From positions 1-5,358 of IMG/VR virus record IMGVR_UViG_3300000059_000099: 5,358 bases of DNA; one strand, written 5' to 3'. Position 1 is the stretch's first letter. The number at the start of each line of letters is the position of its first letter. A program made the position numbers and the translations under genes. The notes below the pieces were generated by a model. It was not told where the DNA came from, did not search any database, and saw only the letters and a list, made by a program, of their open reading frames with translations. This document shows, one piece after another, positions 1 through 5,358 of the stretch. This DNA is from a virus (taxonomy: Duplodnaviria; Heunggongvirae; Uroviricota; Caudoviricetes).

Positions 1-999
1 ATCGCGGAATTTTTCGAAGTAGCCGATAAATGCGCCAAGAGTTTGCGTGCGCATATGTGCCAGCAGGCGCAGGATTGCCCGACGGCGGTCAGTATCAATT
101 TCAGCTATAGGTAGCAGGTCGCCCAGAATCTCGTTGTAGCCCTTCACAACTTCAGCAGGGTCAACGGCAGCCTCAGCAGTGGCCCACGCCTCAGCGTCAG
201 CCAGATATCCGTCAAACCGGTTTACGCGGCAAATGTTCGCAGGTTTCGGCACGCTTCCGCTACGACGGCGCCATGTCGCAATAACCCAACGAATTACTAA
301 CTGAATCTCAGCCACGCTGTAACCAGCGCGGGTGGTGGTGGCAGTCAGCAGCATGACAAACGGTTTAACGTCGCGGCAGCGTGTACCGACTTTCTCGTTG
401 TAGTAGTTCAGAGCTTTTTGAGCGTCAGCGAGAATGATTTCCTCGCCCTCCCCCTTTTGGGGGTAAGGGGGATCTTTTATCTCTGTAGTACTCTCTGTTG
501 TATTCTCTGTAAGAGATTGGGTCATTTTGACCTTAGCGCATGGGTCAACTTGACCTGATGCTTGGGTCACATTGACCTCTTCGATTGGGTCAACTTGACC
601 TGATGCTTGGGTCACATTGACCTCTTCGATTGGGTCAACTTGACCTAATCGATTGGCCACAGGGAATGTTGTCTCTTCAATCTTACATAACTGGGCATAA
701 TTGATTGAATACCACTTGGTTTTATCCCAGGCATCACTGTTAAAGTTCCCAGTAAGCAACACATTCAATTTTTCCAGATTGGCCAACACGCGTTTTATTG
801 TCGACTCGCTCCAGAACGGGAATTGTTCTTGCCAGTCGGTCACACTGTTGTACACCCAGTGGCGATTTTCGAAGAAATTTTGAGACGAATTCAGCCAGTA
901 GTGGATTTGCTGTAGAACGATGGCTTCATTCAACCCTATAGTGCATGCCAACGTGGGCAGGACCTGAAGGGGGTTTTCGTTAATCAGCAAACGACTCAT
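1..999 (-). CDS. Phage replication initiation / replisome-organizer protein, N-terminal 333 codons (continues past window start); lambda O-like in architecture (origin iterons inside the gene) but not obviously in sequence
   Basis: Hand translation of the minus strand from ATG (complement of 997..999) is open to position 1: MSRLLINENPLQVLPTLACTIGLNEAIVLQQIHYWLNS... The iteron-encoded stretch reads in frame as repeated GQVDPIEEVNVTQAS. A GGAG Shine-Dalgarno sits about 8 nt upstream; the start lies 2 nt after the upstream gene's stop. The six-frame track omits it, apparently because it has no in-window stop. Confidence 0.75.
   Translation of the reverse strand, partial: MSRLLINENPLQVLPTLACTIGLNEAIVLQQIHYWLNSSQNFFENRHWVYNSVTDWQEQFPFWSESTIKRVLANLEKLNVLLTGNFNSDAWDKTKWYSINYAQLCKIEETTFPVANRLGQVDPIEEVNVTQASGQVDPIEEVNVTQASGQVDPCAKVKMTQSLTENTTESTTEIKDPPYPQKGEGEEIILADAQKALNYYNEKVGTRCRDVKPFVMLLTATTTRAGYSVAEIQLVIRWVIATWRRRSGSVPKPANICRVNRFDGYLADAEAWATAEAAVDPAEVVKGYNEILGDLLPIAEIDTDRRRAILRLLAHMRTQTLGAFIGYFEKFRD
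518..646. repeat. Iteron array (candidate replication origin) inside the replication gene: six copies of TGGGTCA-NN(N)-TTGACCT with internal dyad symmetry (GGTCA..TGACC), spaced 22-24 bp
   Basis: Direct reading: copies start at about 518, 541, 563, 587, 609 and 631, alternating the variants GGGTCAACTTGACC and GGGTCACATTGACC. A pyrimidine-rich segment and a C5TTTTG5 hairpin lie at 451-517. Confidence 0.7.
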
Positions 1000-1001
1000 A
1001 C

Positions 1002-1226
1002 TCAGATCTCCAGAGCTTCGGCTATCTGACGACAACCGGCTTCATAGTCCGCATTGCTCAGCCCTTTGTCGCGCAACTCGACCTTCCTGGATTCATACTG
1101 CTCCCACACCGAAAGCGCGGCAGCCATACGCCCATCAAAAATAGGTTGGATCTCTGCAACATGTGCCGGGCGCCCATTCAGGTGCCAGCCGTTACGCCAG
1201 GTAATGCGGTCAATATGTCTTAACAT
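1002..1226 (-). CDS. Hypothetical 74-aa phage protein between the YdaT-like gene and the replication gene
   Basis: ORF in the track (MLRHIDRITWRNGWHLNGRPAHVAEIQPIF...). On the minus strand it is preceded by GAGGAAAGACCG then ATG, the same initiation cassette used at 3794. Tightly packed with its neighbours. No family recognised. Confidence 0.55.
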   Translation of the reverse strand: MLRHIDRITWRNGWHLNGRPAHVAEIQPIFDGRMAAALSVWEQYESRKVELRDKGLSNADYEAGCRQIAEALEI

Positions 1227-1265
1227 CGGTCTTTCCTCGGTATAAGTTAAACGCTGGTCAGGCGC

Positions 1266-1742
1266 TCATGCATGGTGGCCTTGCGCAGTGCTTATCACTG
1301 CTCCTCGCGTCGCTACCAGCGCCGCTATTGCTTCGTCAATTTCCTGAATAGTTAACTCTGGCGCGAAGTGGAGATGTACAGCGTTAATCGCTTCCACCCC
1401 TTCTTTTGCCGCCAGCGTTGCCAGCAAAACGGGATCGCCCGGCGACTCCAGACGCGCCCGCCGTTCTGCGGGTAGCACTGCTTTCATCACACTGGCCAGC
1501 ACCTGAGTTTTTCGGCGCGCCGCCGTTGTCTCGCCACGTAACCAGCGAAAGATTTTCTGCCGGTTGTTGTTGATGGCTCTCCAGTCCACGTTGCCGTCCG
1601 TGTCCTCAAATTCATGTAGTCTCAACTCATCATTGCGTCCCTGACTGAACCAGGCCCGGCAGATTTCAATCGTGACGAGTTCCTGCCCTGCCCTTGCCGC
1701 CCAGGTCAAAATCTCTTTTTGTAATTCCTCTTGGTTTTCCAT
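1266..1742 (-). CDS. ydaT: YdaT-like protein (Rac prophage YdaT family; described as a CII-like regulator / putative toxin), 158 aa
   Basis: Recalled similarity to Rac YdaT: LxxAAxxGQ near the N-terminus, NNRQKIFRWLRGET, and LPAERRARL. AGGAGA Shine-Dalgarno upstream of the ATG at 1742. Sits immediately downstream of the Cro-like gene, as in Rac (ydaS-ydaT). Confidence 0.6.
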   Translation of the reverse strand: MENQEELQKEILTWAARAGQELVTIEICRAWFSQGRNDELRLHEFEDTDGNVDWRAINNNRQKIFRWLRGETTAARRKTQVLASVMKAVLPAERRARLESPGDPVLLATLAAKEGVEAINAVHLHFAPELTIQEIDEAIAALVATRGAVISTAQGHHA

Positions 1743-1801
1743 AGCGTCTCCTGTCGCTAAAAATTGATTACGCTTAATCAGATGTAATAAGCCGCCTTTT
1801 G

Positions 1802-1999
1802 CTAAGCTTTTTCATGTTTTGGAACATCGTAAAAAGTCGGGTCATATTTCAGTGCTCCATTAGTGATATGGTCGAGTCGAGCTGCTCGCTTTTCAGGAAC
1901 TGTTGCCCCCCAACGAGTAACCGCCACTTGTGATATACCCAGCACCTTGGCTGTGGCTGTCTTTGAACCAAAAAAACTAATAACCGTCTCTGTTTTCAT
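1802..1999 (-). CDS. dicC: DicC/YdaS-like Cro-type HTH regulator, 65 aa
   Basis: Translation MKTETVISFFGSKTATAKVLGISQVAVTRWGATVPEKRAARLDHITNGALKYDPTFYDV matches the DicC pattern recalled from Qin (FGSKT...VPE.RA.RL...L.YDP..Y). Strong GGAGGAAT Shine-Dalgarno before the ATG. Divergent from the DicA-like repressor. Confidence 0.7.
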   Translation of the reverse strand: MKTETVISFFGSKTATAKVLGISQVAVTRWGATVPEKRAARLDHITNGALKYDPTFYDVPKHEKA

Positions 2000-2067
2000 A
2001 ATTCCTCCGCGTAACTTTTGTTAGCAACATAAATACTAACGAAAGTTATGTCAAGTTAACTTATATT
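2000..2067. promoter_or_regulatory. Divergent immunity control region (OR analogue): two palindromic operator-like sites, TAACTTTTGTTA (2012-2023) and TAACGAAAGTTA (2037-2048), plus a leftward promoter for the Cro-like gene
   Basis: The two 12-mers are reverse-complement variants of each other and form a 13-bp inverted repeat around an 11-bp centre. On the minus strand, TTGACA (complement of 2049-2054), a 17-nt spacer and TATGTT (complement of 2026-2031) make a promoter, with one operator in its spacer. AGTTAACT palindrome at 2053-2060. Confidence 0.5.
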
Positions 2068-2481
2068 ATGAGGATGAAAAATTTGATGCTTAGCGACCGT
2101 TTATCTCAAAGACGCAAACAGCTTGGTCTAACCCAACAACAGCTTGCTGATATGGTTGGAAGATCGAGTGTGAGCGTTTTTAAATGGGAAAGCGGACAAA
2201 ATGAACCAAAGGGCCAGAACTTGTTGGCTTTGGCCAATGCACTCAAGTGTTCTGCCACATGGCTGCTTTTTGGTGACGAAGACCAGGCGCCAACTCCGGT
2301 AGACGAATTACCAACAGAGCTGGATTCACGTCAAAAAAGATTGTTAGAGTTATTTGATTCATTACCCGAGTCAGAAAAAGAAAAGCAACTAATTGAATTA
2401 GAAGATAAAGTTGAAAACTTTAATCGTTTATTTGAAGAGTTACTGGTTACCAGAAAGAAACTAACCCCCACCAAAAAATAA
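2068..2481 (+). CDS. dicA: DicA-like HTH (XRE-family) prophage repressor, 137 aa from the first ATG; alternative starts at 2074 and 2086
   Basis: Translation ...MKNLMLSDRLSQRRKQLGLTQQQLADMVGRSSVSVFKWESGQNEPKGQNLLALANALKCSATWLLFGDEDQAPTP... closely parallels the DicA sequence recalled from Qin (KNLTIGERIRYRRKNL..., SPTWILFGDEDKQPTP, LPESE, KNFNKLFEELL). No good Shine-Dalgarno before 2068, so the message may be leaderless or start at 2074/2086. Confidence 0.85.
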   Translation: MRMKNLMLSDRLSQRRKQLGLTQQQLADMVGRSSVSVFKWESGQNEPKGQNLLALANALKCSATWLLFGDEDQAPTPVDELPTELDSRQKRLLELFDSLPESEKEKQLIELEDKVENFNRLFEELLVTRKKLTPTKK

Positions 2482-2484
2482 AAT

Positions 2485-2519
2485 AAAGGCAATGTTTTCA
2501 ATGCATTGCCTTTATTTTT
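2485..2519. terminator. Rho-independent terminator after the repressor gene, probably bidirectional
   Basis: Stem AAAGGCAATG (2485-2494) pairs with CATTGCCTTT (2504-2513) around a 9-nt loop, followed by TATTTTTA. The A-rich 5' flank (AAAAAATAAAAT) gives a U-tract on the opposite strand. Confidence 0.7.
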
Positions 2520-2530
2520 ACCCCAAATAC

Positions 2531-2580
2531 TAACTTTTGTTATAAAACATCTTGCACATAAAATTACCTTTAGTTATATT
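2531..2580 (+). promoter_or_regulatory. Second operator copy (TAACTTTTGTTA, 2531-2542) next to a near-consensus sigma70 promoter firing rightward (-35 TTGCAC 2552-2557, 17-nt spacer, -10 TATATT 2575-2580): a pL/OL analogue
   Basis: The 12-mer is identical to the operator at 2012-2023. Hexamers and spacing were read directly. Placement just beyond the repressor terminator mirrors lambda OL/pL. Confidence 0.45.
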
Positions 2581-2914
2581 CATTCCATCAACAACGCTTA
2601 CCCAGCGGCAGTTGTTCAGAAACACGTTCTGACAGCCGGAAAGACGGCACCAAATTTTGCGCGTCGGCGCCAACACGGTGACAGAGGGAAAGACTTCACC
2701 GGCATATGGCACATGTGTCGAAGCGGTCTGGATGGAAGCGGAGCCTTAACGCGTTGTCTCCATAGCAGGTAGCCGGAATGTGCAAGCCACAGCCAGGTAT
2801 GAGCGATTGATTCACCATCAAGGCGATACGGTGTGACCACCAGGGAAGAGTCCTGGCTACAACACGAGAGCGCACTTCATCGACTCAACTTTGAGCTTTG
2901 TCGTTAAATTTTGA

Positions 2915-3055
2915 AATGGCGGAGTGCGCTCCCGGTTGTGGTGAACAGGTGTTTAACGGGAACTCCCTGCCCGTTACCCGGTTCGATTCCGGGCGCCCAT
3001 CATCAATTTGCTGTGTTTAGTCTTTGCCCAGTCCGCACGATGGGCCATTTTTTCA
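2915..3055 (+). ncRNA. Candidate small structured RNA (speculative): two adjacent hairpins, one a tRNA-like T-arm, closed by an intrinsic-terminator-like hairpin
   Basis: Hairpin AACGGG-(9 nt)-CCCGTT at 2955-2975. Hairpin CCCGG-TTCGATT-CCGGG at 2977-2993, where the loop matches the tRNA T-loop pattern (GGTTCGATTCC). Downstream stem GCCCA / TGGGC with T6 at 3026-3053. Only a weak promoter upstream (TCGACT, 18 nt, TAAATT, about 2881-2910). No ORF support. Confidence 0.2.
3025..3054 (+). terminator. Candidate intrinsic terminator inside the non-coding stretch
   Basis: GCCCA (3026-3030) pairs with TGGGC (3041-3045) around a 10-nt loop, followed by CCATTTTTTC (T6 at 3048-3053). The stem is short but GC-rich. 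Confidence 0.35.
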
Positions 3056-3146
3056 CACAGCCAGGTTTTATCGCTGTGCCTGAGTCCCCAACAGGAGAGG
3101 CCAAACCCGCAGCGTGACACCAGGGAAAGACCGGAGGAAGTACCAC

Positions 3147-3214
3147 GCCTGACCAGCGTTGACCATGAGCCTGACCAGCTCAAAACAGGAAAGACCAGCC
3201 CGGGCCTGACCAGC
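3147..3214. repeat. Short direct-repeat cluster: GCCTGACCAGC three times (3147, 3169, 3204) with extra GACCA(G/T) copies, phased about 11 bp apart
   Basis: Direct reading of gcctgaccagc-gttgaccatga-gcctgaccagc-tcaaaacaggaaagaccagcc-cgg-gcctgaccagc. GACCA cores at about 3151, 3162, 3173, 3194 and 3208. Confidence 0.6.
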
Positions 3215-3334
3215 CCTGTACGGTCGTAATGGAAACATAACGACGCCGGAAACGTAACCGGCACCCTTTAGATAGCAAAAGACCCGCACAAGGCGGGCCA
3301 GTTACCCCGAACGGCGACCAAACCATTCGGATTT

Positions 3335-3358
3335 ATCACAAGTGACCAAACTTGTGAT
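3335..3358. other. Perfect 9-bp inverted repeat ATCACAAGT-GACCAA-ACTTGTGAT (operator-like palindrome or RNA hairpin), directly upstream of a degenerate gene-start cassette
   Basis: Positions 3335-3343 pair perfectly with 3350-3358. No U-tract follows, so it is not a canonical terminator. Confidence 0.5.
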
Positions 3359-3442
3359 GAGGAAAGACCAACGACACTGACGCTATGGAAGCTGATCAAT
3401 ATTCGCTGATCGGCTCTGAGTATACATTACCAAGGAGTCGCT

Positions 3443-3763
3443 ATGGAAGCGCGCACCATCCCAGTAACACTCTTTATTCATTATGCAACTTCAACTTTCA
3501 GCCACGAAAAGCTGCTTGTTGCGACGGTTGATATGTCAAAAAATTTTCCAGACAGGTACATCCTTCTGGAAAGCCGCGAAATTGAAATTACCGTCAACCA
3601 GCCCCAGCCAATCGACATCATCGGTTTACAGGTCGAGCAGCTGCATGAGCAAAAACAGAAAACAGCCGCCGACGCCCAACAGCGTATTGCTGCTATCGAT
3701 GACGAAATCCAGCAGTTACTTTGCATCGAATACACGCCAGATACCGATGAAATCCCCTACTAA
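3443..3763 (+). CDS. Hypothetical 106-aa acidic protein, first gene after the non-coding stretch
   Basis: ORF in the track (MEARTIPVTLFIHYATSTFSHEKLLVATVDMSKNFPDRYILLESREIEITVNQ...). Strong AAGGAG Shine-Dalgarno 5-6 nt before the ATG; ends 30 nt before the next gene on the same strand. No family recognised. Confidence 0.6.
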   Translation: MEARTIPVTLFIHYATSTFSHEKLLVATVDMSKNFPDRYILLESREIEITVNQPQPIDIIGLQVEQLHEQKQKTAADAQQRIAAIDDEIQQLLCIEYTPDTDEIPY

Positions 3764-3793
3764 AGACCACTGACCTGTAATGAGGAAAGACCA

Positions 3794-5358
3794 ATGACCA
3801 TTTTTAACGGCTTGTTAGAAGCGAAAAAAGGCGCGCTCAAAAACGGTGCGATCCCGGCGCTGGCCATCGCCATCGACGCCCCTAACAAAAAAGTTGCCGA
3901 GAACATCATCATCGGCAAATTGTGGGAAGCCTACCCTGACCACGGCGACAACTATTTCAAACCTAAAATCTGGGAAGATGCCCCGGGCCAACCGCGCCCT
4001 GGCGTCGGTGAGTTTGATGAGACGTTTGCCACAGAACACAGTTTTGATGGCGAAAAATGGGTAGTTAACACCCCCGCTGATTCAGATAGCGGTTCAGCAG
4101 ATATCGCACAGGTTAACGACCTGATGAAACTGCCTGCTCGTGAACGCTTCGCCGCCGTCCTGCTGTTCAGCCACGACGCCAACGAAGTCGACAGTGAATT
4201 GCTTGCGCAGACGCGTGAATACTTGGAGATGCTCGACAACAGTGATACTAACAGTGAGGATGAGGTTGACGCGTTTAACCGCATCGTCCTCGATGCCATG
4301 GTAGCGTGTAAGCCCATTGAGTACATGCATATTGCTGGATTGAATAATCTGGTACATGCAATTTTGGCAAGTTGCGATACCCAGGAACAAAACCCGACCA
4401 GTTGGACTATCTCCAAATTTATAAAAAAATGGGTAGAGAATCCCGGTAAACGCGATGAAATGCTGCCGGAGGTAAAACCACAAACAGCATCCGCACGTCC
4501 TTACCAACAGACTCACGCCACACTGGATCGTGAAATTGCCTGCGCCCTGTTACCTGTTGCCCCGGAAAAAATCACCCCCAGCATCCTGAAAGCGGCAGAC
4601 GAAATAATCAGTCAGGACAGGGAAGATTTTAAACGCTGGTCAATGGCCTTGCGCACAACGGATCAGATCCTTGCCTATGACCGCGCATCAGTATTCGGTG
4701 TTATTCAGAGCGCCCCCGCAAAAGACACGTACCACTTCCCACAATCCCTGCGCAGTCACATCGACAACTGGCTGCAAGCTAACGGGCAGCGTGATGCAAA
4801 TGCTGTTGAAGAGAAGCCAAAGGAAGCAGCACCAAAGGATGATGTAAAAGTCACCAACCACGGCGGCGGACGATTCTCAATTGATGGGATGATGTCAGAA
4901 ACACCCTCAAATCAGGGCGAAAAAAGCGAAGCAGCAAATGCTGGAGAACGTAGTTTGCAGCAGTTGCGTGAGCAGTTTGTCACGCCTCGCCATGTGTATG
5001 ACGTACCTGAAAATAACGCCGTATCACAGAGGGAACCTGCAGCTATTACCCCGGCAGAAGAGACTCCTCCACAAGAACAACTTAGCGAGCAGGTAAAGGA
5101 TCTGGTGCAGAACGTTGACGCGCTGGTTGAGCGGATCCATACCGAAGAGTACAAGCGGCAGAATGCAATCTCAGCTATCGAAACGGAGTTAAAGGACTCC
5201 GACGACACGGATAATCTGGCATTGTGGAAGAACATATTCAAAACCGATGAGCGCTTCACCAGTGCTTTCTCTCAGAATGGCGGCGGCACATCCATCAACG
5301 GCACTTATATAGCGATGAAAGCGACTCGCGAATTTGGGCCGTTTGGTATTGGCTGGGG
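3794..5358 (+). CDS. Large hypothetical protein, N-terminal 521 codons (continues past window end); C-terminal part in the window ends with ...INGTYIAMKATREFGPFGIGW, loosely reminiscent of the Rad52/Sak-type annealing-protein core (uncertain)
   Basis: Hand translation from ATG 3794 (MTIFNGLLEAKKGALKNGAIPALAIAIDAPNKK...) runs 521 codons to the window edge without a stop. GAGGAAAGACCA precedes the ATG. Absent from the track, apparently for lack of an in-window stop. The antisense track ORFs 3952..4416, 4094..4516 and 4912..5259 lie wholly inside it. Confidence 0.7.
   Translation, partial: MTIFNGLLEAKKGALKNGAIPALAIAIDAPNKKVAENIIIGKLWEAYPDHGDNYFKPKIWEDAPGQPRPGVGEFDETFATEHSFDGEKWVVNTPADSDSGSADIAQVNDLMKLPARERFAAVLLFSHDANEVDSELLAQTREYLEMLDNSDTNSEDEVDAFNRIVLDAMVACKPIEYMHIAGLNNLVHAILASCDTQEQNPTSWTISKFIKKWVENPGKRDEMLPEVKPQTASARPYQQTHATLDREIACALLPVAPEKITPSILKAADEIISQDREDFKRWSMALRTTDQILAYDRASVFGVIQSAPAKDTYHFPQSLRSHIDNWLQANGQRDANAVEEKPKEAAPKDDVKVTNHGGGRFSIDGMMSETPSNQGEKSEAANAGERSLQQLREQFVTPRHVYDVPENNAVSQREPAAITPAEETPPQEQLSEQVKDLVQNVDALVERIHTEEYKRQNAISAIETELKDSDDTDNLALWKNIFKTDERFTSAFSQNGGGTSINGTYIAMKATREFGPFGIGW

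Follow-up and report, generated by a model that had tools for sequence, protein, structure and literature searches.

Many start codons of Cluster K mycobacteriophages are preceded by a start-associated sequence (SAS), an asymmetric 13-bp word that lies just 5′ of the codon, is accompanied in about half of the cases by an upstream inverted repeat, and has no known partner or function (Pope et al., 2011, PMC3203893). The present analysis concerns 5,358 nucleotides of viral DNA (the window; positions 1 to 5,358 of IMG/VR record IMGVR_UViG_3300000059_000099), which derive from a lambdoid-type prophage and cover its immunity and early region, and in which an 8-mer, GGAAAGAC, recurs both just ahead of start codons and in predicted RNA hairpins. 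Other regulators are useful for orientation. In the CsrA/RsmA system, the recognized motif overlaps the Shine-Dalgarno sequence and is repeated in the hairpin loops of the non-coding decoys CsrB/RsmZ; CsrA targets often have one site in an upstream hairpin and another at the ribosome-binding site, and the motif is a GGA inside a loop. RegA of phage T4 co-ordinates the translation of many early mRNAs, whose initiation regions contain a short sequence that it recognizes.

Comparison of the window with related loci indicates that the 8-mer is the core of a lineage-specific RNA-level signal in enterobacterial prophages. The signal comprises two words in a fixed 5′-to-3′ order and in two presentations, with strand specificity, placement at the head of gene blocks, and reiteration in an untranslated leader. 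A sequence-only reading of the window had offered, as one of its proposals, a shared regulatory or RNA-binding motif, and this is the best fit to a word that is strand-specific, lineage-wide, and constant while the spacers around it diverge. It is plausible, at a confidence just short of even, that one trans-acting factor binds these predicted sites, with the leader copies competing for it or loading it. Such a putative factor would recognize both words and would set the translation or stability of the early gene blocks; the multi-copy leader sites would act as competitor or loading sites, and the abundance of the leader would thereby tune early gene expression.

Copy Number and Lineage Specificity of the 8-mer

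Seven exact copies of GGAAAGAC are present in the window, at 1229 (minus strand), 2638, 2687, 3124, 3188, 3361, and 3784. This recurrence, already noted from the sequence with coordinates that hold apart from trivial slips, is far above chance: 0.25 copies are expected, and none of 200 dinucleotide-preserving shuffles reached seven, the maximum being three. Related loci are similarly rich, with 10 copies in a 25-kb locus of an Escherichia coli genome (L001; 0.7 expected) and 10 in the 10.8-kb locus of phage BUCT708 (0.4 expected). The density is approximately 1 per kb in the related loci, as against 0.015 per kb (16 copies) in a background of 1.06 Mb of other enterobacterial phage contigs retrieved by an unrelated pattern. 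The frequency does not match the background after correction for Shine-Dalgarno composition, and the motif stays enriched; GAGGAAAGAC occupies 84 of the 101 GAGGA-N(5-8)-ATG contexts inside the lineage and none of the 221 outside it. The Shine-Dalgarno background thus does not account for the motif.

The composite pattern GCCTGACCAGCG-N(8-24)-GAGGAAAGACC, in which GAGGAAAGACC is the start-site form of the motif, is present in representative genomes, usually two or three times per prophage, and the taxa that carry it include Serratia, Citrobacter, Enterobacter, Raoultella, Rosenbergiella, Shimwellia, Pseudescherichia, and Escherichia whittamii. Within the leader, the plus strand contains GACCA nine times and TGAC ten times, and the minus strand contains neither. 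Because it is strand-specific there, the motif system tracks transcription rather than replication, which points to RNA. No description of the motif was found in the searchable literature.

Two Mutually Exclusive Presentations

A survey of 164 distinct sequence contexts from 35 related loci showed that the copies fall into two mutually exclusive classes. In the first, the unpaired start-site (S) form, the motif is preceded by A and reads GA-GGAAAGAC-C (106 of the 164 contexts); it combines a Shine-Dalgarno sequence with its spacer and lies 1-4 nt 5′ of the start codon, and none of the 106 is able to form a hairpin around the motif. In the second, the leader-hairpin (H) form, the 8-mer itself supplies a closing G-C pair and a GAAAGA hexaloop, and 41 of the 58 other contexts are closed by at least three further base pairs past that pair, where chance would give approximately 5%. 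The stems of the H form comprise 17 different sequences, and UGACA or UGACG stands immediately 5′ of the stem. An earlier count of 157 non-redundant sites from 22 of these loci placed 69 before open reading frames (ORFs) of at least 30 aa (at 1-4 nt, in a few up to 7 nt before the ATG), 14 before very short ORFs, 43 in hairpins without a start codon, and 31 in neither setting.

The hairpins of the window that bear on the H form are the following:

2629..2648, plus strand: hairpin unit 1, CUGACA then GCCG-[GAAAGA]-CGGC, with the 8-mer at 2638-2645 (-7.7 kcal/mol)
2659..2670, plus strand: small hairpin between units 1 and 2, GCGC-GUCG-GCGC
2676..2701, plus strand: hairpin unit 2, GUGACA then GAGG-[GAAAGA]-CUUC with outer stem CGGUGA/UCACCG, and the 8-mer at 2687-2694 (-8.6 kcal/mol)
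3114..3134, plus strand: hairpin unit 3, GUGACA then CCaGG-[GAAAGA]-CCGG with a bulged A, and the 8-mer at 3124-3131 then GGAGGAAG

In relatives, the stem of unit 1 changes to GCCCG/CGGGC, GUCCG/CGGGC, or GUCUG/CAGAC, and that of unit 2 to UGCGG/CUGCA or UGCGG/CCGCA. The small hairpin at 2659-2670 retains its GUCG loop, and its stem is compensated (UCGG/CCGA). Of the four copies that lack a start codon, two had been assigned to apparent hairpins; those at 2638 and 2687 do fold, whereas the copy at 3124 forms a weak, bulged hairpin and the copy at 3188 is unpaired. Unit 3, at -3.4 kcal/mol, has an energy no better than that of shuffled sequence, and its status as a hairpin is uncertain; its block is identical in BUCT708.

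At the position of unit 1 (window approximately 2626-2660), E. coli SE11 and TUM13936 carry an insertion of approximately 470-640 bp that replaces the first leader hairpin (L002 3150-3650 and L003 3150-3850). Within the insertion are one or two small ORFs, each with a ribosome-binding site of its own, and loci L179 and L172 are similar at the same point.

A Second Word and the Start Cassettes of Gene Blocks

Where the S form stands between cistrons, a small GC hairpin with the stem GCGC/GCGC or GCGU and the 7-nt loop CUGACCA usually lies 5′ of it. The loop hairpin begins 0-8 nt past the upstream stop codon and ends 10-20 nt ahead of the motif, and the spacer between the two varies from phage to phage while both words are constant. 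Among 99 loop hairpins with stems of at least 4 bp, 33 stem sequences were found; the loop is CUGACCA in 42 and AUGACCA in 12, and GUGACCU, CAGACCA, and CUAACCA are further variants. The second word is present in both forms of the signal, as (C)UGACC(A) in a 7-nt loop in the S form and as unpaired UGACA just 5′ of the stem in the H form. The window contains the following examples:

1224..1267, minus strand: intercistronic cassette from the YdaT/cII-like gene to the 74-aa gene (TGA stop, hairpin, spacer, GAGGAAAGACC, ATG)
3782..3796, plus strand: exonuclease start cassette, GAGGAAAGACC-A-ATG of the 738-aa exonuclease-family gene (ATG 3794)
3145..3216, plus strand: array of three 7-nt-loop hairpins, all CUGACCA, with one unpaired GGAAAGACC (3188-3196) without a start codon between them

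The presence of GAGGAAAGACC-N-ATG before the large ORF at 3794 and before the 74-aa minus-strand gene (ATG 1226-1224) had been reported from the sequence and is confirmed; the further proposal that three copies in the window are initiation cassettes is supported. In the cassette of the 74-aa gene, the hairpin GCGC-CUGACCA-GCGU (approximately 1250-1267) is followed by a 13-nt spacer and GAGGAAAGACC (1228-1238), and this layout is found in every relative, with a diverged spacer. The hairpin 5′ of the exonuclease cassette has decayed in the window (CACUGACCUG) and reads GGCGC-[G/C]UGACCU-GCGCC in relatives.

By its annotated coordinates, the only sizeable gaps in the early operons of L001 are those in which S sites lie, and each site heads a run of overlapping or abutting genes: the 74-aa/RepO/helicase (DnaB) block, four small genes after the helicase, the exonuclease/Gp157/60-aa block, and DUF4224/integrase. 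Other ribosome-binding sites are used by Cro, YdaT, the cI-like gene, and the 106-aa gene. In Serratia and Rosenbergiella, the cassette is located at the same orthologous junctions.

The stems of the array in the leader are ACGC/GCGU (3145-3159), UGAGC/GCUCA (3166-3182), and GGGC/GCCC (3202-3216). In relatives, two to eight S, H, and loop-hairpin units occupy this position in variable number. A 15-bp indel (window 3197-3211 versus L001 12709-12730) leaves L001 without one CUGACCA hairpin, and the direct repeat CCAGCCC lies on both sides of the indel. Units of the array are thus shown to be gained and lost by slippage or recombination.

These arrangements could also be read entirely in cis, with GAGGAAAGACC as a strong ribosome-binding cassette and the post-stop hairpin as an intercistronic stabilizer or a signal for processing, the two being maintained by selection and gene conversion; the hairpins of the leader would then be structural parts of the leader or small RNA that share the 8-mer only by descent, and no common factor would be involved. 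The S sites lie exactly where initiation has to be independent, between one coupled gene block and the next, the distance of 7 nt from GAGGA to ATG is a near-ideal spacing, and the copy number of the array varies as expected of tandem duplication. However, the AAGACC spacer and the CUGACCA loop are unneeded for ribosome binding and yet remain invariant while stems and spacers change, the hexaloop sequence is constant over 17 different stems, and the cassette is used by no other phage in the 1.06 Mb of background DNA. We therefore consider an explanation in cis alone to be unlikely, although less so than the other alternatives discussed below.

The Leader as a Functional RNA

The region that bears most of the repeats is an untranslated leader of approximately 850 nt, which extends from a PL-like promoter to the first genes of the leftward operon. 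Its segments are 74-81% identical to BUCT708, compared with 59% for the 106-aa coding sequence and 49% for the promoter/operator region, and the leader appears to be a functional RNA rather than debris. The elements that frame it and give it its modular build are as follows:

2537..2580, plus strand: PL-like sigma-70 promoter, from a consensus scan only, 3′ of the terminator of the cI-like gene (2480-2518)
2700..2880, plus strand: pseudoknotted RNA element, an inserted module (P1 2700-2720; invariant 19-mer 2768-2786; P4 2807-2821; P5 2840-2856)
3008..3056, plus strand: RprA-like small-RNA module, seed UUGCUGUGUUUAGUCUUUGCC and intrinsic terminator (stem approximately 3026-3045, U run 3047-3052)

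Transcription of the leader presumably starts at the PL-like promoter. The words AAATACTAAC and TAACTTTTGTTA are common to the cro/cI divergent promoter region (2011-2040) and the PL-like promoter (2525-2550), and they are probably operators of the cI-like repressor. From the promoter onward, the leader comprises hairpin unit 1, the GUCG-loop hairpin, and unit 2; in some phages, a structured element of approximately 180 nt followed by a tRNA or tRNA remnant; and then the RprA-like seed and intrinsic terminator, the array of units, a conserved block, and an upstream-ORF cassette. H sites and loop hairpins are thus repeated downstream of the promoter, two of them in the body of the RprA-like small RNA and more in the read-through leader. 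Inside the highly conserved block, a GC-rich minus-strand hairpin (3281-3299, GGCCCGC..GCGGGTC then TTTTGC) looks like an intrinsic terminator facing the immunity region.

The RprA-like module is 83.7% identical to the annotated host rprA over the 3′ half of that gene only, that is, over the seed and terminator. It scores 37.4 bits against the Rfam family RprA (RF00034), below the gathering score of 70, and does not amount to a full-length match. BLAST finds host rprA itself in nearly every E. coli genome. The module is kept across the lineage with compensated terminator stems, and its terminator presumably closes a short PL transcript that bears hairpin units 1 and 2. The prophage copy lacks the 5′ portion of RprA, where the rpoS-pairing region is located; it could mimic RprA or compete with it on its other targets. 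No description of such a copy was found in the searchable literature.

A further alternative is that the RprA-like RNA pairs, through its seed GUCUUUGCC, with GGAAAGAC at ribosome-binding sites, with the leader copies serving as sponges. In its favor, AGUCUUUGCC (3019-3028) is 90% complementary to GGGAAAGACU (2686-2695), and AAAGAC/GUCUUU provides six contiguous pairs with every copy. The seed, however, drifts to GUCUUGGCC, GAGAUUUGG, and, in Serratia, GGAAUUUGG, whereas GGAAAGACC never changes; it tracks host RprA rather than the motif, and it lies partly inside the terminator stem. Because of this drift against a constant motif, seed pairing was set aside as the principal explanation, and we regard it as very improbable.

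A different role for the same region would be antitermination, in which UGACA and a purine-rich-loop hairpin act like the boxA and boxB of a nut site, or like put RNA, in passing the small-RNA terminator at 3026-3052. Units 1 and 2 lie between the promoter and this conserved terminator, which must be passed for expression of the 106-aa, exonuclease, and integrase genes, and a linear word followed by a GAAAGA-loop hairpin resembles the boxA and boxB layout; boxB loops are GAAAA or GAAGA. Against this, the leader contains no boxA, the sole one-mismatch match to a CGCUCUUUA-like consensus being at chance level and inside the 106-aa coding sequence; no N-like gene was recognized with Pfam or PHROGs, in a search that did not cover the short ORFs exhaustively; most copies of the motif are in places where a nut site would serve no purpose, either past the terminator or at ribosome-binding sites; and put RNA is approximately 70 nt long with two stems, with no HK022 among the blastn matches listed (40 of 44). 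Antitermination is thus improbable as the function of these sites. A CsrB-like GGA sponge was also considered and excluded: outside the 8-mers, GGA occurs 15 times in the leader compared with 16 expected.

The element at 2700-2880 is a separate structured RNA, in which CACC of the P4 loop (UUCACCA) pairs with GGUG at 2830-2833 and the P5 loop is GAAGAGU. Its invariant 19-mer, GGTAGCCGGAATGTGCAAG, is present in at least 120 viral contigs. The element is located in the ban-operon leader beside tRNA genes in P1, P7, and D6, in epsilon15-like phages such as SPN1S and Tyrion, in the PL leader of mEp390 just 3′ of the repressor gene, and in Klebsiella phages; it is always oriented with transcription, and a tRNA is often next to it. 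A model of five helices and two pseudoknots fitted to 41 sequences gave 97.6% paired cells, against 25-47% when the partners were slid, and 12 pairs show compensatory changes; the covariation score is 0.227 versus 0.112 in shuffles, with none of 500 shuffles as high. It corresponds to no Rfam 15 family: the scan of the window at E <= 1 gave no hit to it, nor did that of seven element-bearing phage loci at E <= 0.5. In the same window and seven related phage loci, Rfam scans returned nothing for the motif hairpins, and only the sub-threshold RprA. Loci L169, L183, L204, and L172 are without the element and yet keep the motif system.

A tRNA-like remnant is located downstream of the element, at 2945-3000, with a T-arm-like segment (2977-2993) that reads CCCGG-UUCGAUU-CCGGG then CGCCCAUCA; ARAGORN found no tRNA or tmRNA in the window. 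Genuine tRNAs follow the element in relatives, directly past GUUGUGG in a Klebsiella phage (tRNA-Arg) and approximately 110 nt downstream in SPN1S.

The Copy at 3361 and the Question of Decayed Gene Starts

One leader copy stands in a start-like setting, near the distal end of the leader:

3332..3374, plus strand: upstream-ORF cassette, a long hairpin overlapping the start of GAGGAAAGACC (3359-3369), then ACG at 3372-3374

The hairpin pairs 3332-3343 with 3350-3361 around the loop GACCAA (3344-3349), with a folding energy of -14.2 kcal/mol (z = -3.9). BUCT708 has CCGUAGGG/CCCUACGG in place of the entire stem and keeps the GACCAA loop. The copy itself reads GAGGAAAGACCAACGAC and lies within a 26-nt repeat that is 88% identical to 3773-3798; the 5′ flanks, cttgtgatga and cctgtaatga, match nearly as had been quoted.

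The sequence-only reading took this copy for a cassette in which ATG had been replaced by ACG, and the four other copies without a start codon for repeated or decayed gene starts, possibly recombination joints at gene boundaries. At 3361, the idea of a replaced start codon fits loosely, and this is the sole copy for which "decayed start" is a fair description, in that loose sense; relatives are approximately evenly split, with ATG at the equivalent of 3372-3374 in L005, L059, L100, L102, and L169, and ACG or ACA in the window, L080, L179, L224, L175, L173, and L168. Where ATG is present, it opens an ORF of 34-47 codons that runs into the 106-aa gene in a different frame. This ORF is conserved in neither length nor sequence, and any role would therefore belong to initiation as such or to the site.

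Two smaller repeats had been interpreted in the same manner. The duplication of CGCTATGGAAGC, the start context of the 106-aa gene, at 3381 is confirmed, with copies at 3381 and 3439, but it is not the relic of a gene start, since the 3381 copy lies in a 17-nt stretch that is missing from BUCT708. Likewise, ATGGAAGCG (MEA...) does stand before an early stop, giving five codons that begin at 2732 rather than 2733; this ATG lies in a variable hairpin of the structured RNA, is missing from BUCT708, and does not represent a lost gene start. At 3385-3531, a 48-codon ORF in a different frame overlaps the beginning of the 106-aa gene, and the middle part of this ORF (LIGSEYT..RSRYGS) is shared with the BUCT708 ORF that starts at the cassette ATG. 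The shared stretch may be a side effect of the conserved ribosome-binding region of the 106-aa gene.

As a general account of the copies without start codons, loss of gene starts or recombination at module boundaries can draw on several features of the leader. An ATG and a short ORF accompany leader copies in some relatives (37 aa and 34-47 aa in L005, L045, L059, and L169; 48 aa in L151), ORFs are inserted at hairpin unit 1 in SE11 and TUM13936, and CCAGCCC flanks the 15-bp indel. None of this explains why the stems of the hairpin copies, with 17 different sequences, carry compensatory changes, or why the leader is conserved more strongly than the coding sequence; the short ORFs are not themselves conserved, and the ACG at 3361 recurs in several diverged members, which excludes a one-off decay. 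The account is thus largely refuted for the copies at 2638 and 2687, less firmly for that at 3124 with its weak hairpin, and overall it has a low probability.

Candidates for a Binding Partner

If one factor recognizes the two words, a conserved host partner is somewhat likelier than a fast-evolving phage protein, because the motif is unchanged in hosts of different families, from Escherichia to Serratia and Rosenbergiella. Several observations weigh against such a single factor. No binding factor was identified among the lineage proteins by structural models and fold search, or among the early proteins with Pfam and PHROGs, and these two databases revealed no RNA-binding domain in 14 early proteins. 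The lineage-specific 74-aa and 106-aa proteins gave confident models (predicted local distance difference test scores of 87 and 86) with no significant fold match (best PDB matches at E = 1.5 and 0.086, respectively) and no RNA-binding signature. Unit 1 is dispensable in the SE11-type variants, in which inserted ORFs take its place, and the site counts across related loci reflect shared ancestry rather than independent events. The two forms could also have separate functions and share their sequence only through the duplication of one into the other.

Ribosomal RNA was examined as a possible counterpart of the motif. Direct complementarity was rejected: the matches of AAGACCAG to 16S rRNA 984-991 and of CUGACCA to 23S rRNA (annotated gene position 1615) are both at chance level for the word length, and, when the leader was compared with the rrn operon by short-word BLAST, nothing appeared beyond a chance-level scatter of 9-12-mers. 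However, GGAAAGACC (e.g., window 3124-3132 and 3784-3792) is identical to G2056-C2064 of 23S rRNA (that of L264; residues as numbered in a passage of PMC12887398). The chance of an exact 9-mer match in approximately 4.5 kb of rRNA is approximately 0.03, before allowing for an unplanned comparison and multiple testing. We take this segment to be the peptidyl-transferase loop stretch A2058-A2062, which is single-stranded and has helices 73 and 74 on either side, and in which A2058 is the site of macrolides, Erm, and TLR13; the hairpin form would present these bases much as 23S rRNA does. Ribosomal proteins and the ErmC methylase regulate mRNAs that mimic their rRNA sites, and it is tempting to imagine that the motif is such a mimic, through which the phage borrows a conserved host component to gate translation of the early blocks, with the leader RNA titrating that component. 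If the partner were a universally conserved host component that normally recognizes this rRNA segment, a motif frozen in phages of hosts from Escherichia through Serratia to Rosenbergiella would be expected. The identity is nevertheless more likely a coincidence, and we attach little probability to mimicry; it serves as a lead to a conserved host partner.

Genomic Setting of the Lineage

A 1.3-kb stretch around the repeats has matches in 476 of 5426 complete E. coli genomes, in every case on the chromosome and for the most part at 95-99% identity, and a megablast search of phage records returned no close relatives. In L001, the tRNA genes leuZ-cysT-glyW and pgsA adjoin the prophage. The annotation of that genome gives, on the minus strand, the replicative helicase, a RepO-like protein, the 74-aa gene, the YdaT/cII-like gene, and Cro, and, on the plus strand, the cI-like repressor, approximately 950 bp without an annotated gene, the 106-aa gene, the 738-aa exonuclease-family gene, Gp157, a small gene, DUF4224, and the integrase; Pfam and PHROGs support these assignments. 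The lineage consists of temperate phages of Enterobacterales that have the 738-aa exonuclease, replication genes of the RepO and DnaB types, and cI-like, Cro, and YdaT regulators. Tandem iteron-like repeats (GGGTCAACTTGACC.. and GGGTCACATTGACC) lie within the RepO-like gene (window 520-655), where the origin of replication is expected in a lambdoid phage.

If one factor does read these sites, they would constitute a compact post-transcriptional regulon in this prophage lineage, which is carried by approximately 9% of complete E. coli genomes and extends to Serratia, Citrobacter, Enterobacter, Raoultella, and others. The replication, recombination, and integration/excision modules would then be coupled to the abundance of the early leader RNA. 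The phage copy of the RprA seed could, in addition, reprogram host RprA targets, and the leader also supplies a widespread pseudoknotted RNA that stands outside Rfam and is common to phage P1.

Comparison with Known Systems

Each of the described systems shares part of this arrangement. As in the CsrA/CsrB system, the motif is located at the Shine-Dalgarno sequence and many copies lie in the hairpin loops of non-coding RNA. However, GGA here straddles stem and loop, with its first G paired and a loop of GAAAGA, rather than lying inside the loop, and the 8-11 invariant nucleotides go far beyond the need of CsrA. The lambda nut and HK022 put sites resemble the present units in their location in the leader of an early leftward operon and in the combination of a linear word with a small purine-rich-loop hairpin 5′ of a terminator. 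The present sites, by contrast, have no boxA and are accompanied by no N protein recognizable with Pfam or PHROGs; their number is far greater, and some of them are found at ribosome-binding sites. The put site, which lies just downstream of PL and PR, is unlike them in both size and layout. The RegA sites of T4 differ in that they are AU-rich, overlap the AUG, and have neither a hairpin partner nor a decoy array, and no RegA homolog was seen here.

Among described systems, the SAS of Cluster K mycobacteriophages come nearest; the present motif is an analogue of these sequences and not a member of the group. Both are asymmetric, lineage-specific words with many copies that are rare in the background, and both lie a few bases 5′ of the start codons of a subset of genes, oriented with transcription. 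By contrast, the SAS consensus, 5′-GGGATAGGAGCCC, is unrelated to GAGGAAAGACC, and the hosts differ. The repeats of the extended SAS are imperfect 17-bp inverted repeats with a variable spacer, depend on the subcluster, and have little support as RNA hairpins (PMC3203893), whereas the upstream element here is a covarying GC stem of 4-5 bp with a fixed 7-nt loop. New here, and not described for the SAS, is that the start word also serves as the hairpin loop of a leader or small RNA. If the reading proposed here, of one factor for both words, is true, these prophages would provide a tractable E. coli counterpart to the mycobacteriophage SAS, with defined sites, clear covariation, and easy genetics.

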